Shown one piece after another: positions 19,854 to 33,228 of a DNA stretch of 64,000 bases. This DNA is from Bacteroidales bacterium. Lineage in GTDB: Bacteria > Bacteroidota > Bacteroidia > Bacteroidales > UBA1715. The first letter of the stretch is position 1, and each line of letters begins with the position of its first letter. The notes below the pieces were generated by a model. The model saw nothing but the letters and a program-made list of their open reading frames with translations. It was not told the DNA's origin and made no database searches. Location: positions 565 through 64,564 of the forward strand of contig JAKSTZ010000008.1 in the NCBI GenBank assembly GCA_024402335.1, in the 5' to 3' direction. Position numbers and translations under genes: made by a program.

Positions 19854-22800
19854 ATGAATTCAGTGAATTTACATTTAGGTATCGATATAGGCTCTACTAC
19901 AGCAAAAGCCGTAGCAACCAAGAATGGCTCTATCGTTTTTACTACATATCAACGACATAACACTCGTATAAAAGAAAGTGTTCTTGCTATTCTTGATCAA
20001 ATCAAGCAAAAATTTCCCGAAGAAAAGAATGTAAAAATCTGCCTTACCGGTAGTGCCGCTATGGGTATTGCCGAGCAACAAAATCTTCCATTCATACAAG
20101 AAGTTATAGCGGCTTCCGAAGTTATACAAAAGAATTACAGCAATGTACGTACATTAGTGGACATTGGTGGCGAAGACGCAAAGATTATATTCTATGAAGA
20201 AGGAAAATCACCGGACATTCGAATGAATGGTAGCTGTGCCGGTGGAACTGGTGCTTTCATTGATCAGATCGCTACCCTATTAAATGTAGAGACACAAGAA
20301 CTGAACAGCTTAGCGGAACAATCAACTCAAATTTATACGATAGCTTCCCGTTGCGGTGTATTTGCAAAAACCGACGTACAAAATCTAATCGCACGCAAGG
20401 TTCCTATTACCGACATTGCGGCATCGTGTTTTCATGCAGTTGCACTACAAGTTATCAACGCACTGTCGAGAGGTATCGATATTGAGCCGAATGTCCTTTT
20501 TATTGGCGGACCACTCACCTACATTCCGGCATTACAAAACATGCTACGAAAATTGGTTAATTGTACGGAAGAGAATGCGTTCACACCAGAAAACAGCCAA
20601 TTATTCCCAGCTTGGGGAAGTGCCATCGCTGCCGAAAACGACGAGAAAGTATTCACGATAGACGACATTTACCAGCGCATAGAAAACTCGTCAAACATTG
20701 TCACCAAGAATAGACTTGAAGCCTTGTTTGCAAACAACCAAGAGCTACAAAATTGGAACGAACACAGAAAAATCGTCCCTATTCCAGAAAAGACCGTGGA
20801 ATTTGGTCAAAATTCAATAGATGTATTTCTTGGTATAGACAGCGGTTCTACAACCACAAAAGTGGTGTTACTCGACAAAGACGGAAATCTTATTGCATCA
20901 AATTACGATACAAACAAAGGTAATCCTATACTTGCCGTAATTAACGGCCTTGAAGCATGTTGCAAGAACCTACAATGTTCGTCAATAAACATAATTCGTT
21001 CTGCTGTAACCGGATACGGCGAAGACCTTATCCGTGCTGCATTCAACATGGACGAAGGCATAGTTGAAACTATCGCGCACACAACAGCGGCAAAAAAAAT
21101 AGAGCCAAACGTATCATTTATACTTGATATCGGCGGACAGGATATGAAAGCCATTTTCATAAAAAATGGCGCTATACAAAACGTCGAAATCAACGAAGCA
21201 TGTTCTTCGGGCTGCGGTTCTTTCATCCAAAATTTCGCACAGACATTAAATCATACAGCTGAATCATTTGGAAAACTCGCTTGTTGCGCACCAAACCCTT
21301 GCGATTTAGGTTCACGATGCACCGTTTTCATGAACTCACAAGTAAAACAAGCTCTTCGTGAAGGTGCCGACACATCGGAAATAGCGGCAGGTCTCGCCTA
21401 CTCCGTAATAAAGAATGCGTTATTCAAAGTATTACAGATAAAAAACATGGATGTTCTTGGTGAAAAAATACTCGTACAAGGCGGAACATTCAAAAACCCA
21501 TCGATATTCCGTGCGATGGAAAAGCTTACCGGAAAAGAAATATACAGTTCCAATAAGCCAGAACTTATGGGGGCTTTAGGTGCTGCATATTTTGCACAAA
21601 CCTGCTACAAGAATAACCAAGTGCCATCGTCATTTATCGGTTATGAAAATAGACAAGACGCACTTTCATACACAACAAGACAAATAAACTGTCGCGGATG
21701 CGCCAACAACTGTATCGTGACAAAATTCACGTTCAATAACAATGCGGTACATTATTCCGGCAACAAATGCGAAAAAGTATTTACATCAAAAGGTAACACG
21801 ACAGAACGCGGAGAAAATTTGTACGACTTCAAGTACGAATTACTCTTCAACCGTGATACAAATGCCTTAAATGATGTAAAAAACATAAAAATAGGAATTC
21901 CACGAATTTTAGGAATGTATTCAAACTTTCCTTTCTGGAACACCCTATTTACGCACTCTGGTATAGACGTTGTTCTTTCCGACGAATCAACGACAAAAAT
22001 CTACGAGAAAGGCCAAGGAACAATTATGGCCGACAATATTTGTTTCCCTGCTAAATTGGCACACGGACATATTTTTAACCTTGTAGATAAAAACGTAGAT
22101 AGAATATTCTATCCGCTTGCCATTTACGAGGAAAACGAGTTCAAAGAATCTAAGAACAGCTACAACTGTCCGGTTGTTTCAAGTTATTCCGAAGTACTTG
22201 ATTGTGCAATTCCACCAGAAAAACGCAACAAGATACCATTCGACAAGCCAGTAATCACATTCAGAGACGAAAAACTGCTAAAGAAAAGTTGCTGGACATA
22301 TCTAAAACAATTTGGCATCTCCGCACGCACATTCGAAAATGCGTTCGACGAAGCATTACGTGAACAGAAACGTTACCGTGAGCAATACAAGAAGAAAGGA
22401 TTCCGTATTTTGGAACGAGCAAAGCAAGAAAACAGACCTATAGTCATGTTGGCTGCCCGTCCATACCACACGGATCATTTGGTACATCAAAAAACTTCAC
22501 AAATTCTTTCTGAATTAGGAGCAAGTGTCGTTACCGAAGAAATTGTAACCAATATTCAAGGCGTATCGTTGACAGACTATCTTCATGTCGCACAATGGAA
22601 TTATCCGAACAGAATCATGCATGCAGCACAATGGGTAATCCACAACGACGAATACAACATCCACTTTGTTCAAATGAACTCGTTCGGATGCGGTCCCGAC
22701 AGCTTCCTTTCCGACGAAATTAAAGAATATTTCGAGCAAGCGAAAAAATCATACACATTCATACGCGTTGACGAAATCAACAGCACCGGATCTATGCGAT

Positions 22801-24137
22801 TACGACTCCGTTCCCTAATAGAGACTATTAAATTAGGAGAAAACGAATCAAAAGAATTCGGCGACAGAATTATCAAAAAAACGCCTGCATTCAAAGAAAA
22901 CGACAAGAAACGCAAAATACTTGCACCTTTCTTTACAAAATTCGTATCACCGCTTATCCCTCCTATTTTCGAATATTTGGGATACGATATGGAAACATTG
23001 CCTATGTCCGATAAAGAATCGGTAAACATTGGATTAGCATGTTCCAACAACGAAATTTGTTTCCCAGCGACACTCGTTATCGGAGACATTATAAAAGCAT
23101 TAAAATCAGGAAAATATGATTTAGACAACACTGCTGTTATAATGACACAAACCGGTGGTCAATGTCGTGCTTCTAACTATTTGGCATTAATCCGTCGTGC
23201 AATATTAAATAACGGAATAACTAATGTACCTGTACTTTCGTTTGCAACAGGCGGAACGCAGGACAATGAACAGCCAGGATTTGAAGTAGCATGGACAAAA
23301 GTTGTTAAATTAATACTTGCTGCCGCTTTATTTAGCGACAACATTTCACGTATGCATTATGCTACGATAGTACGTGAAAAAGAAGTTGGCGGTACAGAAA
23401 AATTGACAAATTCGTATTTGGAAAATGCAGCAGAATTAATTCGTCACAACGACCATGTGGGCGTGTTAAAACTATTAAAACGCGCAGTTGAGGACTACAA
23501 CGCTATGGCAAAGGACAATTGCCCTCGCCCACAAGTAGGCATAGTTGGAGAAATTTACCTGAAATACAACGCATACGCAAATATGCACGTGGCAGATTGG
23601 TTGATTTCGCAAGGAATCGAACCTCGTTTCCCAGACTTGATGGACTTCTTTACACAAGAATTCATCAACTTGAAAATCAACACGAAACACAATTTACGCA
23701 CAACGAGTTTAGGAACGAAATTATTCGCCGATTTCTTACAATTACGATATGACAGATTCGAGAAGAAAGTCGAGAAAATCGCCTCTAAATTCAAATACTA
23801 TCGAGAAAAACATAGCATAAAACAAGAAGCAGAAAATGCCGAAAAAATCATCAGCCTCGTAAACCAATTTGGCGAAGGATGGCTAATTCCTGCCGAGATT
23901 GTCAGTTTTTCACAAGAAGGCGTAAACAATGTCGTAAGTCTACAACCTTTTGGTTGTATAGCCAACCATATCATATCAAAAGGTATAGAGAAGAAAATCA
24001 AATCGTTATATCCAAAAACAAGTTTGTTATTCCTTGATTTTGACGGAAATACAAGCGAAGCAAATGTATTCAACAGGCTTCATTTCCTTGCTCAAAATGC
24101 CAAAAACGAATTTGCGGAAGAAAATAAAAACTCATAA
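19854..24137 (+). CDS. Double BcrAD/BadFG (HgdC-type) activase ATPase fused to a Cys-rich CoA-enzyme-activase-associated C-terminal region
   Basis: 1427 aa. Two ASKHA phosphate-1 motifs are present: [12 protein letters not shown] (about aa 10) and [12 protein letters not shown] (about aa 327). Cluster-type segments are SCAGGTGAF and [10 protein letters not shown]-terminal Cys motifs are [38 protein letters not shown] and FGCIANH. Confidence 0.8.
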
Positions 24138-24162
24138 ATTTGCGAAAATTAAAAATTACAAC

Positions 24163-25161
24163 ATGGAATCATTACACGGCAAAAGTTTTCTAAAACTTTT
24201 AGACTTTACACCTACAGAAATTCGTTATTTTCTTGATTTAGCACACAAATTGAAAGCAGACAAGAAAAACGGTGTAGAAAAACAAACAATGAAAGGAAAA
24301 AACATTGCATTGATATTTGAAAAAACATCTACACGTACTCGTTGTTCTTTTGAAGTTGCTGCTGCCGACCAAGGTGCACACACTACATATTTAGGTCCAA
24401 CAGGATCGCAAATCGGTGTAAAAGAATCTATGAAAGATACTGCAAGAGTACTTGGTCGCATGTACGATGCTATTGAATACCGAGGTTTTGCACAAACAAC
24501 AGTAGAAGAACTTGCAGCATATTCTGGTGTTCCAGTATGGAATGGTCTTACTGACGAATTCCACCCTACTCAAATCATAGCAGATTTCATGACTATGGAA
24601 GAACACTGTTCTAAACCATTGAATAAAATCAGCTACGCATATCTTGGCGACGCCCGCTTCAACATGGGTAACTCACTAATGGTTGGTGGCGTTAAAATGG
24701 GTATGGACGTAAGAATCGTTGCACCAAAAGCATTACAACCTGATGCTGAACTAGTTGCACAATGCCAGAAAATCGCAGCAGAAACAGGTGCAACATTAAC
24801 TATCACCGACAATGTTGCCGAAGGTGTAAAAGGTTGCGATTTCTTGTACACTGACGTTTGGGTTTCTATGGGTGAACCAAAAGAAGTTTGGGCAGAACGT
24901 ATCGCTCTTTTAAAAGATTTCCAAATCAATAGTAAGACAATGGAAATGACAGGCAATGTAAACTGCAAATTCATGCACTGTCTTCCTGCATACCACAACT
25001 TGGAAACACAAGTTGGTCGTGATGTACACAAACAATTCGGATTAGACGGCGTTGAAGTTACAGAAGAAGTATTTGAATCACCAGCTTCTATCGTATTTGA
25101 CGAAGCAGAAAACCGTCTTCATTCAATTAAAGCCATTATGGTGGCAACTTTAGGCGAATAG
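24163..25161 (+). CDS. argF: Ornithine carbamoyltransferase (canonical OTC type)
   Basis: 332 aa from the ATG at 24163. The ORF-track TTG start at 24034 overlaps the upstream gene and was rejected. Motifs STRTR, HPTQ, DVWVSMG and HCLP are present, with close resemblance to enteric ArgI/ArgF. Confidence 0.92.
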
Positions 25162-26063
25162 TGTTAGACTATTTTTTCTCTAAAAATATTGCATTTAGGA
25201 TAGTTACAGGTTTTATCTCAACCCTGTTTCTATCCTTTTTGCTTTTCAGTATTCTTTATTCTATAGCCCCAACAAGCAACGGACTGAATGGTTTACAATG
25301 TATAGCCAAAGGCCTTCCTACATCCAACGAGGATAGACTTTGTATATTATATATGCTTTCAGTAGAAACTATCTGTATTTTTCTAATCCCTGCACTTTGT
25401 ATGCTATTTTGCATCAACCGTAAGCCTTGGAAACTATTACATACCACCTACCAAAGCAACAAATCCATACTATTGATTATTCCATTTATCATCATAGCGA
25501 ACATACCGTGTATAAACTTATTATCAGAAATAAACACTGAAGCTGTACTAGCAATAGTAGGAGAAGATTCAGCCCTTTGGCAAAACTACAAACAGACTGA
25601 AATCCTCACAACCGCACTCATGTCTCCCAACATGATTTGCATAGATATATTGGCGATGTCACTATTGCCAGCAATATGCGAAGAATTATTTTTCAGAGGA
25701 TTACTTCAATCAATCGCAATCAAACAATTTAAGCATAAACATCTGTCTATCATATTAATAGCAATTATATTCAGTCTATTGCATGGAGATATTTTTAATT
25801 TTATTCCACGATTTGTTTTAGGCTTACTTTTGGGGTATTTATTTGCTTATACCGGCTCTATACTATACCCTATTTTTGCACATATTCTTCATAACATGTT
25901 GGTCGTGGTTAGCACAACAATTCCAAATTTGTTCCCCGAAAACATTGAAACCATTGGCACCACAACCGACCTGCCACTAATAGGAACAACAAGCACACTA
26001 ATACTTATTGGGTTTATACTTGTTTTAGCAAAAAACAGTCATTTCTATCAAGCCGAAGCCTAA
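25161..26063 (+). CDS. CPBP family intramembrane glutamic endopeptidase (CAAX protease-like)
   Basis: 300 aa and polytopic. Motifs EELFFRG, FSLLHG and HILHN are present. The GTG start overlaps the argF stop by 1 nt. Confidence 0.85.
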   Translation: MLDYFFSKNIAFRIVTGFISTLFLSFLLFSILYSIAPTSNGLNGLQCIAKGLPTSNEDRLCILYMLSVETICIFLIPALCMLFCINRKPWKLLHTTYQSNKSILLIIPFIIIANIPCINLLSEINTEAVLAIVGEDSALWQNYKQTEILTTALMSPNMICIDILAMSLLPAICEELFFRGLLQSIAIKQFKHKHLSIILIAIIFSLLHGDIFNFIPRFVLGLLLGYLFAYTGSILYPIFAHILHNMLVVVSTTIPNLFPENIETIGTTTDLPLIGTTSTLILIGFILVLAKNSHFYQAEA

Positions 26064-26118
26064 ACTAAAGTTTTATTTTTTGTTCATAATGAACACCTAC
26101 AATAGGCGTTCATTACAA

Positions 26119-27048
26119 TCAATCTTTTATAATCCTAAATAACAATGTATTTTGAAATGTGATGGATTTATTTCGTACAAAAAATAAAGTTCCATCTACA
26201 GGACTTTGAATTTCGCAAACCAATTTCCCCTCATACGGATGCATTATACGAGCTATAGCCTCTCCTTTTTTCACCTGCATACCAGCATTTTTCTCTATAA
26301 TAAGAATACCGGCATGAGGAGCTTGAATATTTACCAGATTTTTATTTGTGACCAAAATTGGTTCCACATCTTCTATTTTGCTTTTGGTAGCTACCAATCC
26401 TTTCTTTACCATAAAATGCAACAGAGCATCTATTGCGACTTGTACCATCGAATGATCAATAACATCCGTCGTTCCTGCGTATAAAGAGAAAGCCTTGGTA
26501 TCCCAAATCTGCCAGTTGTAGTTAAGTAAAACCGTATCAAACGGTTCCGGCTCTCGTATTGCGACATAAGGAAAGCCAAATTCTTTGGCATCTTCCACAT
26601 CCTCAAAACCAGTATGAATCATACGAATATGAGGCAAAAAATGCCCTGGCAAATAATACGACGCTAACTGCACACCATAAGAAAAATCCTTAACAAACTC
26701 AAATAAACCGGAAGCAATTCGTTGCGTTGTTTCCCCTTGTCCATAACCAGGAAACATTCTATTGATATCAGTATTATCGAGTGCCCAAAAACGTTTTTCT
26801 AAGTTCATAGAAAATGGATTTACCGACGGCACAACAGAAATTGAGCAATTCGGTTTAATTGCATCCTGCGCTTCCAATTGCTGCAACACATCAACCATAC
26901 GACTTGCTATGTATTGTTGTTGAATTTCATCACCACGCATAGAACCAACAATACATAAACTTTTTTCGCCTTCACCAAACGTATAGGCTTTCACACGAAA
27001 ATCATCGCGATACGGCGACGACATACGAAATATAGTTTGAACTTTCAT
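26119..27048 (-). CDS. Succinylglutamate desuccinylase/aspartoacylase-family paralog with degenerate zinc site
   Basis: 309 aa and collinear with the upstream paralog. IVGSMRGDEIQQ replaces the HxxE zinc motif (His changed to Arg). No DxH third-ligand motif is visible. Confidence 0.7.
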   Translation of the reverse strand: MKVQTIFRMSSPYRDDFRVKAYTFGEGEKSLCIVGSMRGDEIQQQYIASRMVDVLQQLEAQDAIKPNCSISVVPSVNPFSMNLEKRFWALDNTDINRMFPGYGQGETTQRIASGLFEFVKDFSYGVQLASYYLPGHFLPHIRMIHTGFEDVEDAKEFGFPYVAIREPEPFDTVLLNYNWQIWDTKAFSLYAGTTDVIDHSMVQVAIDALLHFMVKKGLVATKSKIEDVEPILVTNKNLVNIQAPHAGILIIEKNAGMQVKKGEAIARIMHPYEGKLVCEIQSPVDGTLFFVRNKSITFQNTLLFRIIKD

Positions 27049-27051
27049 TTC

Positions 27052-27978
27052 TTACAATTTATGAATTCTACCAAGCAAAGAACCTTCATACACAATAGGA
27101 TACGCACGTATCGTAAATAAAAGCCCGTCACATGGCGCAACAACATTACTTAAAACCATACCCGTCAACGGAGAAATGATTTGTCCGATAGTCTGCCCAC
27201 GTTCAACACGAACATCATTGTGGATTTCCGTAATAAAAACACCACTTACTTCAGCATTTAAAAATGCAACAGAATCACCACCTTGATTTACAATACTTTC
27301 TCCGATTTTATCCGCACTTGGAGCTTCACTCCAAATACCAAGATTATACATAATATTCTGAATACCATCGACTAAATGCTGACACATACTGTGGCTAATT
27401 CTACCACCGACTCCCATTTCGGCAACCAAGCAAGGCGTTCCTATTGAATTAAGTGAATGAGCCAAAGTAGCTTCCAAAACAGTCGCAGCCTGATGTATCC
27501 AAATAAAATCTATACCTAACATTTTCGCATACGGAACCAAAGTATCGGCACACATTTCACTAATACGAACCTGCGGTATTTCACGCAAAAAGATATTCGA
27601 GGCATGAATATCTATCACCATATCGGCACCACTTAAATCCGTATAAATATCATGCGCAACCTTTTCTATCATCGACCCTCTGGAATTGCCAGGAAATATT
27701 CTATTCATATCAAGGTCAAATGCAGGTACGCCACGTTGCATGGCATCCATACCGAGAGGATTCAAGCAAGGATAAATATCAACAACACCTGTAAGTTTCT
27801 CCGGAGATTCCTGTACCATTTTCGCAATCAAATAACACACATATTGTCCTTCCAACTCATCACCATGCGTTCCAGTCACAATACAAATACGCTTTCCCTT
27901 TCCGCGAGATAAATGATTTTTCTGTATCCGAAATTCTTCATCTACAGGCATCTCCAATGCTGTAACATTTTGTATCAT
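27052..27978 (-). CDS. Succinylglutamate desuccinylase/aspartoacylase-family zinc deacylase (COG3608-like)
   Basis: 308 aa. The zinc motif is IVTGTHGDELEG and the third ligand region is VIDIHAS. A C-terminal beta-barrel-like domain is present. The start overlaps the transglutaminase gene stop by 1 nt. Confidence 0.8.
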   Translation of the reverse strand: MIQNVTALEMPVDEEFRIQKNHLSRGKGKRICIVTGTHGDELEGQYVCYLIAKMVQESPEKLTGVVDIYPCLNPLGMDAMQRGVPAFDLDMNRIFPGNSRGSMIEKVAHDIYTDLSGADMVIDIHASNIFLREIPQVRISEMCADTLVPYAKMLGIDFIWIHQAATVLEATLAHSLNSIGTPCLVAEMGVGGRISHSMCQHLVDGIQNIMYNLGIWSEAPSADKIGESIVNQGGDSVAFLNAEVSGVFITEIHNDVRVERGQTIGQIISPLTGMVLSNVVAPCDGLLFTIRAYPIVYEGSLLGRIHKL

Positions 27979-28763
27979 TATAATTCCTTTAAAACTGTTT
28001 TTATATTCAATAACTCTTTCGTATTACCATATATTTGTCCACGGTTCGAAGGACAATCCCCAACATCTCCACCATGTGCAATTTTAACATAGCCCCAAGT
28101 CACACAACAATCCCGAGTCGGATCATAGCCTTTCCAACAGGAACCATCGTACACTTCGACCCACGCATGCGTCTCGCCTTCTCCCAAAACCAAGCCATTC
28201 ACATACCGAGCATATAAACCCACACAACGGCAAGCAGCAATCATAACATGTGCAAAATCCTGACAAACCCCTTCCCGACTACGAAAGACATCCATAGCAC
28301 AGGTAGTATTTGAAGTAGAGAACTTTTTATATGTCAAATAATCATGGACATTATGCAAAATTGCAACAGACTTAGTGACACTATCCATACCCGTAGATAC
28401 AAACGAATGAACCCAAAGCTCAAAAGAATGGTCATAATAAGTATGCTGCGAAGGTGCTAAGTAAATTGGATTGGGCCGTAATTCCGGCAAAACATAGGGA
28501 CCACATTTTACAACACCCGAACTTTCAATGCGAAATTTGTCATGCGCTTGATTGTAACTACCATATTGCACCTCGTTACCAAAGCCATCCTTTGTCCAGT
28601 AAACCATACACGAAGGCTCAATGCACAAATTTCGTTTCTCAACCAACTGCATTGAATTCATACACGGAGCCATACGCATTTTAAAAAAATGGTACGAAAC
28701 CGACGGCGTAAAAGAGGCCTCCGTTACATACAGATACTCATATCTTCTATAGCCATCTTCCAC
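27978..28763 (-). CDS. Transglutaminase-like cysteine protease-fold protein
   Basis: 261 aa. The Cys-His-Asp triad context is REGVCQDFAHV, GETHAWVEVY and GYDPT. Confidence 0.85.
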   Translation of the reverse strand: MEDGYRRYEYLYVTEASFTPSVSYHFFKMRMAPCMNSMQLVEKRNLCIEPSCMVYWTKDGFGNEVQYGSYNQAHDKFRIESSGVVKCGPYVLPELRPNPIYLAPSQHTYYDHSFELWVHSFVSTGMDSVTKSVAILHNVHDYLTYKKFSTSNTTCAMDVFRSREGVCQDFAHVMIAACRCVGLYARYVNGLVLGEGETHAWVEVYDGSCWKGYDPTRDCCVTWGYVKIAHGGDVGDCPSNRGQIYGNTKELLNIKTVLKEL

Positions 28764-29458
28764 TATACCAACACAATAGAATTCAAAATTTCTAATATCA
28801 AGTCCTTGCTCTCTTTTGACGTATATATGCCATCAGATTCTAACAAATTAGCAAATAAATCAGCTTTTCCTTTATCGAATAATTCAGGCTCGGTCACCAT
28901 ATATTTCTCTATCATACTCCATATTTCATGCAAACGACTCTTTTCATATTCAAAACGAATATACATATCCAGATGCTCTACCAATCGACCTATTTCAAGA
29001 AGCGCATACACTTGACCACGAACACGTTCACGAATTGATCCCCAAAACGCAAGCAACCAATCTGTTATAGGTTGCAGTTCGGTTATATTCATTTCCTTTG
29101 CATCAGCTTTTTTACGAATCAAATCGCGACATAATTCTATATACGAGAAAGACTCTGAATATATCTCGGAGCGCAATACAATCGCATTATTCATCATCAT
29201 CTCAATAACACTACGTAATGATGTAACCGTATTTGGATCATAAATCTGCATCATCATTTGGTAACTAGTAGTAAACTCACTTGAAACATACACGTCGAGT
29301 TTCTCAAGAAAATCACTATATGGAACTTCACCTACCGGAACATCAATAACTTCATCATACGCACGACGCATGAGATGCAACATTATATATCCACGTTCGG
29401 CATATCTACCCAACCAATACAAGCAATTTGCTTTATTTTCACTAAGAATTGTTTTCAT
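28763..29458 (-). CDS. Alpha-E domain protein
   Basis: 231 aa. The N-terminal signature is NCLYWLGRYAERGYIMLHL. The protein is all-helical and sits between the ATP-grasp and transglutaminase genes. Confidence 0.8.
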   Translation of the reverse strand: MKTILSENKANCLYWLGRYAERGYIMLHLMRRAYDEVIDVPVGEVPYSDFLEKLDVYVSSEFTTSYQMMMQIYDPNTVTSLRSVIEMMMNNAIVLRSEIYSESFSYIELCRDLIRKKADAKEMNITELQPITDWLLAFWGSIRERVRGQVYALLEIGRLVEHLDMYIRFEYEKSRLHEIWSMIEKYMVTEPELFDKGKADLFANLLESDGIYTSKESKDLILEILNSIVLV

Positions 29459-29480
29459 ACCGTTTGTTTTTTGTTTGTTT

Positions 29481-30800
29481 TTATTTTTCCATTACCCAAG
29501 TATCCTTAAAACCGCCACCTTGGCTACTATTAACCACAAAAGAGTGCGGATCACGACTAAAACGCGTTAAACCAGATTTCCAAACTTTTGTTTCCCTACC
29601 CGTAACTACAAAAGCGCGAAGATCGCATTTACGAGGTGAAGGATTGCTATTCTCATCTATAATATCCAAGTCTATGAAATCAACAACTTCCTGTGCTATC
29701 CATCGACGAGGATCTTGTATGATTAAATTCTTCACTTCCTCCAAACGTTCTGGCGACATGTCACGACCGAACATAACACCATATCCTCCAGCTTCGGCAA
29801 CATCTTTAATCACCAATTTTTTCACATTCTTTATAATGTAGTCGAAATCCTCTTTAAAGAACGGCAAATACGTCGGTGCATTCGACAAAATCGGTTCTTC
29901 GTTCAAATAATACGAAACCATTTTAGGCACGAAATAATAAATACCTTTATCATCTGCCACGCCATTACCAAACGCGTTAATAACACCAACATTTCCAGCA
30001 CGATACGATTCCATAAGATTCGGAACGCCAAGTAGCGAAGACGGCTCAAATGCCAACGGATCCATATATTCGTCAGAGACACGACGATAGATTGCACCAA
30101 CACGATGTTTTCTTCTGTTAATTCCTATGTAATACACATTGGAATTTTCAACTACCAAATCGCCAGGGAAAGCCAATACCGCTCCCGTTTTTTCGGCCAA
30201 ATATGAGTGTTCAAAAAAGGCAGAATTATAACGACCTGGGGTAAAAATCACATTTATACCTCGACCGTCATTTATATAATCCATCATTTCACGAAGCATG
30301 TCGCCATAATTTCTATTGTCGGCAACAAGATTATCGCGGAACGTTTGCGGAGAAGCCTTTCTCGTAACTTTTCTCGCTATCATCGGATACGAAGCTCCAC
30401 TTGGAATACGAAGATTGTCCTCCAAAACCAACCAACGTCCATCTTTATCTTGTACCAAATCTATTCCCGCAATATGCGCATACACATTCTTCGCCGGAGT
30501 AATTCCATCGCAATCAGGCATATAACCTTTACTTTCATACGTAAATTCTTTAGGAATCACCCCATCATTCACAATACGTTTTTCATGATAAATATCATAC
30601 AAAAACATATTTAACGCCTTAACTCTTTGAATAAGACCTTTTTCCAACATAGCCCATTCGTCTGCCGGAATTTTTCGTGGAATGGAATCAAAAGGGAAAA
30701 TTTGTTCATTAAAAACACCATTTTTATATACTCCAAAACGCACACCATACCGTTCCATCCACACATTAACAGTATCTCGTGCTGCCAATAATTCTTTCAT
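29481..30800 (-). CDS. Circularly permuted type-2 ATP-grasp protein (amidoligase)
   Basis: 439 aa. Family-typical segments are FPFDSIPRKI, LVLEDNLRIPSGASY, IYRRV, GVADDKGIYYFVP, IKDVAEAGGYGV and VNSSQGGGFKDTWV. Confidence 0.85.
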   Translation of the reverse strand: MKELLAARDTVNVWMERYGVRFGVYKNGVFNEQIFPFDSIPRKIPADEWAMLEKGLIQRVKALNMFLYDIYHEKRIVNDGVIPKEFTYESKGYMPDCDGITPAKNVYAHIAGIDLVQDKDGRWLVLEDNLRIPSGASYPMIARKVTRKASPQTFRDNLVADNRNYGDMLREMMDYINDGRGINVIFTPGRYNSAFFEHSYLAEKTGAVLAFPGDLVVENSNVYYIGINRRKHRVGAIYRRVSDEYMDPLAFEPSSLLGVPNLMESYRAGNVGVINAFGNGVADDKGIYYFVPKMVSYYLNEEPILSNAPTYLPFFKEDFDYIIKNVKKLVIKDVAEAGGYGVMFGRDMSPERLEEVKNLIIQDPRRWIAQEVVDFIDLDIIDENSNPSPRKCDLRAFVVTGRETKVWKSGLTRFSRDPHSFVVNSSQGGGFKDTWVMEK

Positions 30801-30853
30801 ACAATTATAAATTAAGATTTAAGATTCTACTTATCGACCAAAAACTAGTCACC

Positions 30854-30940
30854 ACAAACGATGATACAATCTACCACAGCCCAGGCGGGCTGCTGAATGT
30901 TTAGTACTATTGTATCCATCAAGAATCTCATTCCGTTTGT
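30854..30940 (-). promoter_or_regulatory. Structured 5' leader (three-stem element) of the ATP-grasp operon
   Basis: The element has nested complementarity. The outer stem pairs acaaacg (30854-60) with cgtttgt (30934-40). A second stem pairs atgatacaat (30861-70) with attgtatc(c)at (30909-19). A GC-rich apical stem pairs cagccc (30877-82) with gggctg (30887-92). A side hairpin is gaat-ctc-attc (30923-33). Confidence 0.5.
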
Positions 30941-30948
30941 TTTTTTTG

Positions 30949-30956
30949 CAAATATA
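30949..30956 (-). promoter_or_regulatory. Putative -7 promoter box for the ATP-grasp operon
   Basis: The reverse strand reads tatatttg (TAnnTTTG). It places a TSS near 30940, at the 5' end of the structured element. Confidence 0.35.
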
Positions 30957-31250
30957 TACGATTTTTAATAATTTAATAACAATTTGTAATTATTTTTACA
31001 ATTTTCGCTTTTAATTTATAATATAACATCAATTTTTACTTTAATCATATCATAAAATTACATAATTAAAGTAACATTATGTTCGTACCGAAAAAGCAAA
31101 GTTCCATGGCTTGTTTTTAAATCATACAAACAACTGTAGTTTTAATCTTACACAAAAGATTTTCACAAAACCAATTGGGAAATAACATATAAGCTACAAA
31201 CACACCCATTATTTTTCAGCCGAAAACGCTTATCATTTCTAAATCTTTAC

Positions 31251-31258
31251 TACATTTG
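31251..31258 (+). promoter_or_regulatory. Putative -7 promoter box for thrS
   Basis: tacatttg matches TAnnTTTG and lies 23 nt upstream of the ATG at 31282. Confidence 0.35.
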
Positions 31259-31281
31259 CGACCGAAAATATATTTACTACA

Positions 31282-33228
31282 ATGATACAAATAACATTTC
31301 CTGACGGTAGTGTCAAAGAGTTCAACGAAGGTGTTACTCCGTTGGAAATTGCCGAAAGTCTTAGTGCACAACTTGCACGCGAGGTTGTTATAGCAACTGT
31401 TAACGGCAATGCTTGGGATTTAAAACGTTCTATAAATGAAAATGCAACAATAGCACTTCACAAATTCGACACCCCTGAAGGTAAACATGCTTTCTGGCAC
31501 TCTTCTGCACACCTTTTAGCAGAAGCTCTACAAGCATTATATCCAAATACAAAATTCGGTATCGGTCCAGCCATAGAAAATGGTTTCTACTATGACGTTG
31601 ACCTTGGCGACATCACTTTAACGGAAAAAGATTTGATAGCTATCGAAAACAAAATGTTGGACTTAGCACGTCAGAAAAATGATTTCGTACGCAAAGATGT
31701 TCCTAAAGCAGACGCTTTGAAATATTTCGGTGACAAAAACGAAACGTATAAAGTAGAACTTATCAACGACTTGGAAGATGGTTCTATTACATATTATACA
31801 CAAGGTGCTTTCACTGACCTTTGTCGTGGTCCACACTTGCCAAACACTGAACCTATCAAAGCTGTAAAACTTACAAGTATTGCAGGTGCATATTGGAGAG
31901 GCGACGAAACACGTAAACAATTAACTCGTATTTATGGTATTACTTTCCCTAAGAAGAAAATGCTTGACGAATACTTGGAATTGTTAGAACAAGCTAAACA
32001 ACGCGACCACAGAAAAATCGGTAAAGAAATGGAACTTTTCATGTTCTCCGATTTAGTTGGTAAAGGTCTTCCTATTTGGTTGCCAAAAGGTACAGACCTT
32101 CGTCTTCGTTTGGAAAGCGCACTTAAAAGAATTCAAAAAAGATTTGGTTACCAACAAGTTATGACTCCTCATATTGGTGGTAAAAATCTATATGTTACTT
32201 CAGGTCACTGGGATCACTATGGAAAAGATAGCTTCCAACCTATCACAACTCCAGAAGAAGGTGAAGTTTATTTGTTAAAACCAATGAACTGCCCTCACCA
32301 CTGTATGATCTACAAAAACGCACCTCGTTCATACAAAGATTTACCATTCCGTTGTGCTGAATTCGGAACTGTATATCGTTATGAGCAAAGTGGTGAATTA
32401 CATGGACTTACACGTGTACGTTCATTCACACAAGATGATGCGCACATTTTCTGTCGTGCAGACCAAGTAAAAGACGAATTCTTAAAAGTTATCGATATTA
32501 TTCAAATCATTTTCAAAGCTTTGAAATTCGATAAATTTGAAGCACAAGTTTCTCTTCGTGACAAAAACAACACTACTAAATATATTGGTAGCGACGAAGA
32601 TTGGGAAAGAGCTGAAAATGCTATCATTGAAGCAGCTGCTGAAAAAGGTTTGAACACTATCGTAGAATACGGCGAAGCAGCATTCTATGGTCCAAAACTA
32701 GACTTCATGGTTCGCGATGCTCTTGGAAGAAGATGGCAATTAGGAACTATCCAAGTTGACTACAACTTGCCTAAACGTTTTGATCTTGAATACATTACAA
32801 GCGAAAACACAAAAGAACGTCCTGTAATGATTCACCGAGCACCATTCGGTTCAATGGAACGTTTCGTTGCCGTTTTGATAGAACATACAGGCGGTAAATT
32901 CCCATTATGGTTGACTCCAGATCAAGCTGTAATCATTCCTGTAAGTGAAAAATATAATGATTATGCGAAAAAAGTTTTGAATTTATTAAATAATTACGAT
33001 ATTCGCACACTCATTGACGACAGAAATGAGAAGGTAGGTAAAAAAATACGCGACAACGAAATGAAACGTATCCCTTACCTAATCGTAGTCGGAGAAAATG
33101 AACAAAACGAAGGAACAGTTTCTGTGAGAAAACAAGGCGAAGGAAACGGCGCAACAGTTATGAAAATAGAAGAATTTGTTGCACAAATCTCTGCCGAAGT
33201 TGACGAACAAATGAACGAAATGAAATAG
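31282..33228 (+). CDS. thrS: Threonine--tRNA ligase
   Basis: 648 aa. It has a TGS N-terminus, the editing-site motif [13 protein letters not shown], class II motifs ([35 protein letters not shown]) and an anticodon-binding C-terminus. Confidence 0.96.

Follow-up and report, generated by a model that had tools for sequence, protein, structure and literature searches.

Five adjacent genes in a Bacteroidales genome raise the question of whether an ATP-dependent ligase and the hydrolase-like proteins encoded beside it form one system that makes and breaks an amide bond, and what two deacylase-type genes contribute to it. To our knowledge, the ATP-grasp/alpha-E/transglutaminase triad at its core is a widespread operon that has lacked a function since 2008-2009. 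In the literature it is a predicted peptide-ligase or tagging system whose substrate is not known (PMC3235984, PMC3495828, PMC6376114, PMC5666114), and its transglutaminase-like protein has been predicted to reverse the ligase's product (PMC3495828). The five-gene unit is a new variant of this known, unsolved system, to which it adds a pair of deacylases, one predicted to be active and one inactive; a literature search and an NCBIfam comparison returned no characterised ortholog or biochemistry for the unit.

The genes form a real, tightly packed operon within the window (the whole 64,000-nt stretch of DNA that we analysed), where the ORF listing gives a minus-strand run of five ORFs at 26119-30800:

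29481-30800, minus strand: CP ATP-grasp gene, 439 aa (PF14403, PF04174 and PDB 3N6X matches)
28763-29458, minus strand: alpha-E gene, 231 aa (PF04168 match)
27978-28763, minus strand: transglutaminase-like gene, 261 aa, GTG start (PF01841 and PF08379 matches)
27052-27978, minus strand: first deacylase gene, DEA, 308 aa (PF24827 match)
26119-27048, minus strand: second deacylase gene, DEB, 309 aa (DEA paralog, weak PF24827 match)

The close packing claimed in a preliminary description of this DNA is borne out by the ORF spacing: there is a 22-nt gap between the ATP-grasp and alpha-E genes and a 3-nt gap between DEA and DEB, and both the alpha-E stop/transglutaminase start and the transglutaminase stop/DEA start overlap by 1 nt, which suggests translational coupling. 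Gene callers give the identical five genes, with identical overlapping starts, in contigs that are 95-97% identical to this one. The flanks are also as first described (argF/CPBP and thrS); OTCase and Rce1/CPBP-type protease genes lie below the operon and thrS and infC above it, all on the plus strand. None of the five families has a second copy elsewhere in the window.

The triad and the deacylase pair

Profile-HMM searches recovered every family named in the preliminary description, CP_ATPgrasp_2, Alpha-E, Transglut_core and, twice, AstE_AspA, and these matches bear out the first three genes as the COG2308/COG2307/COG1305 triad. In Pfam, the ATP-grasp protein matches CP_ATPgrasp_2 (PF14403; 1.9e-132, 442 bits against a cut-off of 32, model positions 1-373 of 374) and CP_ATPgrasp_1 (PF04174; 2e-120), and it matches PDB entry 3N6X, from a beta-proteobacterium, at 9.7e-110. 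It is the product of the operon's most conserved gene (59-86% identity across phyla) and is about 40 N-terminal residues shorter than the 481-aa environmental form. We predict that this CP type-2 ATP-grasp is an ATP-dependent amide-bond-forming enzyme; ATP hydrolysis has been reported for the ATP-grasp of a homologous Yersinia operon (PMC6376114).

The alpha-E protein matches PF04168 in Pfam (5.2e-15, 56.4 bits against a cut-off of 20.8) over model positions 6-164 of 294 only, less than a full-length domain; the alpha-E of an environmental homolog (L120) spans positions 1-294. The 120 homologs listed all fall between 208 and 245 aa in length. Residues W15, L16, G17, R18, Y19 and R22 are conserved in at least 95% of 76 sequences, the N-terminal GRY.ER motif and the previously quoted CLYWLGRYAERG are present, and the C-terminus shows no conservation. 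An AlphaFold2 model (pLDDT 89.7, pTM 0.88) has ten helices and gave no significant fold match in the PDB. The alpha-E gene adjoins the CP ATP-grasp gene in all loci with enough flank, and one locus (L145) encodes CP_ATPgrasp and Alpha-E as a single fusion; alpha-E is thus predicted to be the all-helical partner of the ligase.

The third protein matches Transglut_core (PF01841; 9.3e-19, 68 bits) and Bact_transglu_N (PF08379; 8.5e-11, 43 bits) in Pfam, as well as PDB 3ISR (2.7e-16). Its Cys-His-Asp triad, C167, H199 and D214, is conserved in at least 95% of 77 transglutaminase-like sequences, and the motifs quoted earlier (GVCQDF, THAWVEV, YDPT) are all there. This protein is predicted to act as a thiol amidase, peptidase or transamidase.

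DEA matches AstE_AspA_cat in Pfam (PF24827; 2.3e-23) and the structures 2QJ8, 3CDX, 3NA6 and 6TWM, the last of which is DoeB. All 161 orthologs have H38, E41 and H125 and the catalytic E187. In the family HMM, H38, E41, R82, N92 and R93 correspond to H21, E24, R63, N70 and R71 of human aspartoacylase (2O4H), and motif similarity together with alignments to 2QJ8 and 3CDX places H125 and E187 at H116 and E178 of ASPA. R82, N92 and R93 are conserved except in one lineage that has the pair alone (12 loci), where Met stands at 93. DEA is therefore predicted from these residues to be a catalytic AstE/AspA-type (M14-related) zinc deacylase; given its zinc ligands, catalytic Glu and Arg/Asn-Arg, it should cleave an amide of the N-acyl amino acid type. 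Its clade is narrow, with 93 clusters (50% identity) at E <= 1e-30 against 3435 at E <= 1e-3. The scores fall below the NCBIfam equivalog cut-offs that would mark orthology, far below them for DEA with DoeB (65 bits against 402.7) and aspartoacylase (21 against 180), and also for DEB with DoeB (32 against 402.7).

DEB is a paralog of DEA (24% identity, E = 1e-31; hhalign probability 99.9 over 299 columns) with a marginal AstE_AspA_cat match confined to its N-terminal half (2.2e-07, 31 bits against a cut-off of 25). We rejected DEB as an active zinc hydrolase, since it has R38, E41, A129 and Y190 in place of His/Glu/His/Glu and here lacks both zinc His residues. Among its 79 genome-set orthologs these four positions read REAY, RETY, REHY, RESY, RECY or REAF, and none has Glu at the catalytic position; across all lineages, DEB-type genes replace the catalytic Glu with Tyr/Phe, Gln, Arg or Ser. 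In the gut lineage both zinc His are lost as well, with REHY among the listed patterns, and the carboxylate-binding Arg/Asn-Arg is kept. The earlier view of the two deacylases as two hydrolases thus fails for DEB. At least 95% of 80 orthologs share R38, E41, R86, N96, R97, Y132, H140 and Y190, and most DEB-type genes retain the carboxylate-binding R..NR. These patterns lead us to predict that DEB is a conserved pseudoenzyme partner that binds ligand and does not hydrolyze it.

DEB follows DEA in every sufficiently long locus except two (L146 and L164). DEA has the fold signature, zinc ligands, catalytic Glu and carboxylate-binding Arg/Asn-Arg in common with DoeB, AstE and aspartoacylase; unlike them, it is paired with an inactive paralog, those same two loci aside, and is usually joined to the triad. 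The strict conservation of a predicted active and inactive pair would make it a clean case for studying pseudoenzyme-partner function.

Distribution and nitrogen context

At least 588 species-representative genomes carry the five-gene variant, among them abundant gut groups (Prevotella, Faecalibacterium, Coprococcus, Lachnospiraceae). We examined 80 loci, which come from the best-scoring species-representative genomes with a relative of DEA and are not a random sample. All five genes are found in 71 of them, the remaining nine being cut by contig ends; since every locus with enough flank (71/71) holds the whole set, the proposed association of the deacylase pair with the triad is not accidental. 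Order and strand are identical in 70 of the 71 complete loci; in the other (L068) the triad is divergent. The complete loci span at least four phyla and include two cultured isolates, and the unit extends beyond Bacteroidota. Carriers among the examined genomes include Bacteroidales, Lachnospiraceae, Faecalibacterium, Treponema, Succinivibrio and Mailhella; the genomes are mostly MAGs, so some taxonomic labels may be wrong. Soil and sediment contigs have the same five-gene order with a full-length classical triad.

The GC content of the module follows that of its host from 0.33 to 0.62, which argues that these are resident genes. No other conserved gene was found in the flanks of the 80 loci, where the next-best family occurs in at most 11, so the five-gene unit is self-contained. 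The DEA-DEB pair also occurs with no triad within at least 4.2 kb, at 17 metagenome loci in about five lineages. Coupling is therefore frequent, not obligatory; the pair can work alone, on a substrate that may differ from what the ligase makes.

Under nitrogen limitation, homologous triad operons rank among the most strongly induced genes (PMC3235984, PMC8050072, PMC5491218). Ammonium-transporter genes adjoin only 7 of the 80 loci, among them loci with the gene on the same strand, immediately upstream (L007, L014) or about 570 nt upstream (L026), and loci with it divergent (L002, L017). The directly upstream arrangement occurs in some Prevotellaceae. The five-gene system is probably tied to nitrogen economy in these organisms too.

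Readings of the five-gene unit

We favor the reading that the five proteins work in the cytoplasm as a single enzyme system that both forms and cleaves one particular amide bond, and put its probability at about 0.5. The CP ATP-grasp, together with alpha-E, would convert a carboxylate to an acyl-phosphate for coupling to an amine. The product would most likely be an amino-acid unit with a free alpha-carboxylate, for example a Glu/Asp-type adduct carried by a small metabolite, by a peptide or at the end of a protein. The transglutaminase-like protein could serve as a thiol amidase or transamidase on this product or its precursor, and DEA, as a zinc hydrolase, would cut the amide adjoining the free carboxylate. 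DEB, which retains the carboxylate-binding residues, may be a non-catalytic subunit for substrate binding or regulation, probably in a hetero-oligomer with DEA. A cycle of synthesis and turnover for the amide product is a reasonable inference.

A first precedent is the classical Anbu operon. It has the same three families in the same order, with a hydrolase gene after the transglutaminase gene in both operons and a nitrogen-related context for both. The classical triad has a longer alpha-E than the ~230-aa protein here (model 6-164 of 294) and an ATP-grasp with about 40 more N-terminal residues, and the five-gene variant, compared with the classical operon, lives in gut anaerobes of several phyla. 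In place of the Anbu Ntn-hydrolase gene, we find DEA, DEB and then the convergent CPBP gene; given that the deacylase pair occupies this position, it is probably an alternative hydrolase for a similar product. Counting against a single system, pull-downs in Yersinia did not find Anbu in complex with the other operon proteins (PMC6376114).

A second precedent is E. coli Gss, in which a permuted ATP-grasp-like amide ligase is combined with a papain-like Cys-His amidase able to undo the ligation. The pairing of ligase and Cys-His amidase is alike; in Gss they are fused and the ligase belongs to Pfam GSP_synth, whereas here they are separate proteins, the ligase belongs to PF14403, and alpha-E and deacylase components are added. 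The depositors of 3N6X named it a 'putative glutathionylspermidine synthase'; glutathione or spermidine as the substrate here is unsupported.

A tentative alternative, the tagging model of Iyer and Aravind, is a special case of such a make-and-break system with a macromolecular substrate: the ATP-grasp would add amino-acid tags such as Glu to a protein C-terminus or acidic side chain, the transglutaminase-like peptidase and the M14-related DEA would be two erasers, and DEB the tag reader. That DEB has lost catalysis and still has its terminal-carboxylate-binding residues fits a reader. The same three enzyme classes write and erase C-terminal tags on tubulin: the TTL/TTLL ATP-grasp ligases, the transglutaminase-like vasohibins and the M14 CCPs (cytosolic carboxypeptidases). 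The likeness is that an ATP-grasp ligase occurs together with a thiol peptidase of the transglutaminase-like kind and a zinc carboxypeptidase of the M14 clan (PMC3495828); the families within each fold differ, so that the analogy is one of enzyme classes only. Published work on the triad likewise predicts tagging (PMC3495828, PMC5666114). On the other hand, the closest characterised relatives of the ligase (the glutathionylspermidine synthetase-like 3N6X) and of the deacylase (DoeB, AstE and AspA) act on small molecules, no conserved target or precursor gene was found in or beside the unit, and the C-terminus of alpha-E is not conserved. In its boldest form, as a bacterial writer, eraser and reader of C-terminal or side-chain protein tags and a prokaryotic counterpart of the tubulin-code enzymes, the proposal is doubtful. 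If true, dominant gut commensals would have a nitrogen-tuned tag system in which ATP-grasp and alpha-E write, two enzymes erase and DEB reads.

We consider it unlikely that the transcript carries two separate functions, with DEA-DEB a catabolic (N-acyl-)amino-acid deacylase unrelated to the triad product and adjacency arising merely from common regulation, for instance by nitrogen. The pair does stand alone in the lineages described above, at one locus (L142) it follows a class-III aminotransferase gene and PucR-type regulators, a catabolic-looking context, and the characterised family members AstE and DoeB are catabolic (PMC3187862). Against this, the fixed order and the 1-nt transglutaminase/DEA overlap hold across phyla and in two very divergent triad types, and no other gene is retained to a similar degree. 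An anti-phage defence or other conflict cassette, spread horizontally, would account for a self-contained cassette in unrelated genomic contexts of several phyla, but is very improbable, given that none of the five proteins matches a PADLOC family, conservation is very high (as in the ATP-grasp), GC is fully adapted to each host, the unit is surrounded by housekeeping genes and keeps its synteny in close relatives, and plasmids hold no close homologs (all matches below about 31% identity).

The variant adds a hydrolase from a family of well-understood chemistry, cleavage of an N-acyl bond beside a free carboxylate, which narrows the product and offers a direct assay. Its presence in abundant gut genera and two cultured isolates makes genetics and metabolomics feasible.

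Candidate promoter, leader and terminator

Three further features lie at the edges of the operon:

30949-30956, minus strand: candidate Bacteroidota -7 promoter box, TATATTTG, read from the sequence
30801-30945, minus strand: 5' leader of about 145 nt with three predicted helices, from folding and shuffles
26088-26114, minus strand: 11-bp hairpin, candidate terminator without a U-tract, read from the sequence

The operon had been credited with its own promoter and structured leader, a claim that stands in part. The -7 consensus of Bacteroides promoters is TAnnTTTG, and the candidate box fits it; TATATATTTGCAA is unchanged in an alignment with L082-L084, and the DNA farther upstream is poorly conserved. 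The leader folds with an MFE of -36 kcal/mol against -26.9 ± 3.2 for shuffles (z = -2.8), and its helices are preserved in L082 and L084. None of its 33 pairs covaries, because only three sequences are aligned. The leader has no Rfam match: a search of 25900-31400 gave nothing at E <= 1, and across the whole window no hit reached the gathering score. The leader had no sequence match in the remaining loci, and its conservation is limited to the 95-97% relatives. At the other end of the operon, a consensus terminator scan did not report the 11-bp hairpin, which lies within the 55 nt that separate DEB from the convergent CPBP gene.

Layout of the operon and its leader

An ORF listing recovers five minus-strand ORFs exactly where the preliminary description had placed them, and Pfam assigns them to the families proposed there: CP_ATPgrasp_2/CP_ATPgrasp_1, Alpha-E, Transglut_core with Bact_transglu_N, and AstE_AspA_cat twice. 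The first three make up the triad (COG2308-COG2307-COG1305); the last two, DEA and its paralog DEB, form the deacylase-family pair.

Features of the operon and its leader in the window
30956-30949, minus strand: candidate promoter box TATATTTG, read as the Bacteroides -7 consensus TAnnTTTG
30845-30931, minus strand: upstream ORF MRFLMDTIVLNIQQPAWAVVDCIIVCGD of 28 codons, inside the operon leader
29481-30800, minus strand: ATP-grasp gene, 439 aa
28763-29458, minus strand: alpha-E gene, 231 aa
27978-28763, minus strand: transglutaminase-like gene, 261 aa
27052-27978, minus strand: DEA, first AstE/AspA-type deacylase gene, 308 aa
26119-27048, minus strand: DEB, second AstE/AspA-type gene, 309 aa

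The first two genes lie 22 nt apart, the next two junctions each overlap by 1 nt, and 3 nt separate DEA from DEB. The overlapping starts are also chosen by independent gene calls in relatives with 95-97% identity, on whose contigs the operon and its surroundings are identical in layout; the nearest named relatives of the window are Paludibacteraceae. There are no additional members of the five families elsewhere within the window. On the coding strand, the operon (26119-30800) has a GC skew of +0.20 to +0.32, compared to about 0 in neighboring genes of equal GC content; in 70 orthologous modules, the median skew is +0.09 and the maximum 0.26.

On one side, the operon borders an OTCase gene and a CPBP/Rce1-like gene; on the other, it borders thrS-infC. 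We considered a link to OTCase and rejected it, given that this adjacency is confined to close relatives. The mechanically called OTCase ORF (24034-25161, plus strand) has a TTG start at 24034 and overlaps by about 100 nt the end of a 1427-aa ORF (19854-24137, plus strand) encoding a fused BcrAD_BadFG/DUF2229-type protein, as labeled by Pfam in the identical gene of the relative L082. Translation of OTCase probably begins at the ATG near 24163, in line with the 332-aa gene call in L082.

The divergent region 5' of the ligase gene is 481 nt long. TAnnTTTG is the Bacteroides -7 consensus; the box matching it and the roughly 145 nt that follow to the start codon are conserved in the close relatives (L082-L085) far above the DNA further upstream. 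The leader folds more stably than shuffled sequences (z = -2.8) into three helices, which are kept in the relatives, where three sequences are too few for covariation. There is no Rfam match in the leader or in the whole window, and an nhmmer search of all loci hit only the relatives with 95-97% identity, so a widespread riboswitch is unsupported. The promoter and structured leader ascribed to the operon thus find support in the conserved box and the fold, but not in Rfam or in other lineages, which do not have the leader sequence; a structured leader is plausible but local. The upstream ORF stays open in L082-L085 (32 codons), and its single indel is 3 nt, so that the frame is kept. It could be a leader peptide or a by-product of the conserved RNA helices. 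In about 95 loci examined 5' of the ligase gene, no precursor or leader peptide is shared beyond the near relatives of the window.

Distribution of the pair and the triad

We scanned genomes, one per species, with DEA aligned with cluster representatives of 40-60% identity. DEA relatives are encoded in at least 588 genomes, and the loci analyzed here are the 80 best-scoring of these, with 54-81% identity; metagenome-assembled genomes (MAGs) predominate in the sample. Among these best 80 are Bacteroidales (Prevotella, Rikenellaceae, Paludibacteraceae, and the isolate Parabacteroides distasonis An897), Bacillota (Lachnospiraceae, Coprococcus, Faecalibacterium, Ruminococcus, and the isolate Anaerostipes faecalis AGMB03513), and also Treponema, Succinivibrio/Succinatimonas, and Mailhella. 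Nearly all come from gut, rumen, or faeces.

When the five window proteins were compared by phmmer with all ORFs of the 80 loci (stop-to-stop translations), the complete set was found in 71; the other nine end at contig edges and so offer no counter-example to five-gene linkage. Gene order and the single strand are as in the window in 70 of the 71 complete loci, the one exception being L068, where triad and pair are divergently oriented. The proposal that the pair belongs with the triad therefore holds in every locus with enough flank (71/71), and the association is widespread. The GC content of the module tracks that of its flanks from 0.33 to 0.62, which argues against mis-binning or recent transfer. 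Clustering of genes in the 5-kb flanks of the 80 loci revealed no conserved neighbor beyond an ammonium transporter gene (PF00909) that adjoins the operon in seven Bacteroidales loci. It lies 5' of the operon on the same strand in three of them, immediately so in L007 (1396-2799) and L014 (923-2326) and at a distance of about 570 nt in L026 (5034-6458), and is divergent from the operon in L002 and L017; L040 is also among the seven. Homologous operons are either strongly induced under nitrogen limitation or NtrC-dependent (PMC3235984, note added in proof; PMC8050072; PMC5491218). The five-gene unit is a self-contained cassette in unrelated genomic contexts.

For a second scan, we searched metagenome contigs with distant DEA relatives (35-44% identical among themselves), again taking the best 80 loci. 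Triad genes lie immediately 5' of the pair in 49 of these. In a soil and sediment lineage, it is the classical full-length triad that precedes the pair: L120 encodes an ATP-grasp of 481 aa, an Alpha-E of 312 aa whose match spans the entire model (6e-85), a transglutaminase-like protein, and two AstE_AspA proteins. On the environmental contig L145 (2-7085), the order is a transglutaminase-like gene, a 1117-aa fusion of transglutaminase and DUF2126 (putative amidoligase), a 901-aa fusion of CP_ATPgrasp and Alpha-E, a second transglutaminase-like gene, and the pair. The pair also occurs without the triad, in 17 metagenome loci whose upstream flank is 4.2 kb or longer and which represent about five lineages; the pair is therefore the tighter unit. 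The coupling of pair and triad is thus real and widespread, old and frequent, but not obligatory, since the pair is able to stand alone.

Several loci depart from these patterns. One lineage (L142 4551-9799, also L104, L152, and L158) has a gut-type pair without the triad, directly 3' of a class-III aminotransferase gene and two PucR-family regulator genes. L108 and L109 (5405-10122) carry Alpha-E, a transglutaminase-like gene, and the pair; no CP ATP-grasp was detected in 5.4 kb upstream, where the large ORFs have no Pfam match or a weak one (EF-hand). At its N-terminus, their Alpha-E ORF is extended by 190 residues, possibly because the ORF is called too long in GC-rich DNA. L146 (7839-8849) has the full triad and DEA, but no second deacylase ORF was detected, although the flank extends 8 kb downstream. 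L150, which is nearly identical to it, does have one, and the missing DEB may reflect a frameshift or an assembly error.

A predicted catalytic and a predicted non-catalytic subunit

DEA and DEB are 24% identical and align end to end in a profile-profile comparison (probability 99.9). In DEA, H38, E41, R82, and N92-R93 align to H21, E24, R63, N70, and R71 of human aspartoacylase, so that DEA retains the family signature. H125 (in a DIH motif) and E187 (in an E-M-G motif) are also aligned in 2QJ8 and 3CDX, and motif and family alignments, rather than a structure, suggest that they correspond to aspartoacylase H116 and E178. First genes read H/E/H/E without exception (161 of 161). The catalytic Glu is never present in DEB-type genes, where the four positions read R-E-(A/T/S/H/C)-(Y/F) in the gut lineage, H-E-H-Q and H-E-H-R in two environmental lineages, and Q-H-x-S in a divergent pair-alone lineage.

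Although the 80 DEB orthologs are only 42-70% identical to DEB of the window, at least 95% of them share R38, E41, R86, N96, R97, Y132, H140, Y190, and some 50 other positions; judged by sequence, DEB is not decaying. The Arg/Asn-Arg set, which holds the substrate carboxylate in the AstE/AspA family, is retained in DEB of both the gut and the soil type; in the divergent pair-alone lineage, Asn-Arg is replaced by Asp-Leu. The simplest reading is that DEA would be a catalytic subunit and DEB a conserved pseudoenzyme that binds ligand, the two probably forming one oligomer. Both proteins thus belong to the AstE/AspA family, as described, but one is predicted to be active and the other, without the catalytic Glu, inactive. 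In one pair-alone lineage (L116, L123, L126, L128, L130, L132-L134, L137, L139, L148, and L151), N-M replaces N92-R93 of the catalytic subunit, with Met at the second carboxylate-binding position, which hints at a different substrate.

The ATP-grasp gene is the most conserved of the operon (59-86% identity across phyla), and its product matches the structural-genomics entry 3N6X at 1e-110. The transglutaminase-like protein retains Cys167-His199-Asp214 and matches 3ISR. Alpha-E of the window's lineage is a short form (208-245 aa), with a match to no more than the first 160 positions of the model. Its AlphaFold2 model has ten helices (pLDDT 89.7, pTM 0.88); a Foldseek search of the PDB found nothing significant (best E 0.56, TM 0.32), and hence no clue to alpha-E function. 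Reading the translations by eye, we saw no signal-peptide-like N-terminus in the five proteins, so the system is probably cytoplasmic.

A proposed cycle of ligation and hydrolysis

The triad was defined by Valas and Bourne together with Anbu, the Ntn-hydrolase gene of the classical operon (PMC3235984). Later papers cite Iyer et al. 2009 for the view that the triad is a system for peptide ligation or tagging, with the transglutaminase-like protein undoing what the ligase makes (PMC3495828, PMC5666114). The sole biochemistry we found is that the Yersinia ATP-grasp hydrolyses ATP; the same study detected neither peptidase activity of Anbu nor a stable Anbu complex with other operon proteins (PMC6376114). 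The literature accessible to our search yielded no functional study of the triad after 2017 and no characterisation or mention of the five-gene form or the deacylase association; none of the five proteins has an NCBIfam equivalog. This agrees with the earlier statement that no substrate or product of the triad is known to have been demonstrated. A triad-type system is known already, its function unsolved; the five-gene form with the pair appears to be new.

We propose that the ATP-grasp with alpha-E would join a carboxylate to an amine through an acyl-phosphate, yielding an amino-acid unit with a free alpha-carboxylate, and that DEA, aided by DEB, would hydrolyse this amide. The transglutaminase-like thiol enzyme would act on the ligation product or its precursor. 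We give this reading about an even chance. It keeps the synthesis and turnover cycle suggested previously, with an association that is real and widespread, but without two active deacylases and with a pair that can stand alone. The pair occupies the position that Anbu has in the classical operon, suggesting that two unrelated hydrolases serve one step.

Alternatively, the pair may serve a catabolic function of its own and be merely co-regulated with the triad, a reading supported by the pair-alone lineages and by the L142-type pair, downstream of its aminotransferase and PucR regulators; the fixed gene order and the overlapping genes, seen with two triad types that differ greatly, argue against it. 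We consider a defence cassette unlikely: PADLOC gave no match, the sequences are very highly conserved, GC content fits each host, the neighbors are housekeeping genes, and close plasmid copies are absent, a plasmid search with DEA returning only distant relatives below about 31% identity.

If the ligase does make an amide that the pair hydrolyses, the acceptor would be a small metabolite or a protein end. The nearest characterised relatives, on both the ligase and the deacylase sides, act on small-molecule substrates; the combination of enzyme classes in the operon, however, mirrors that of the tubulin tag enzymes.
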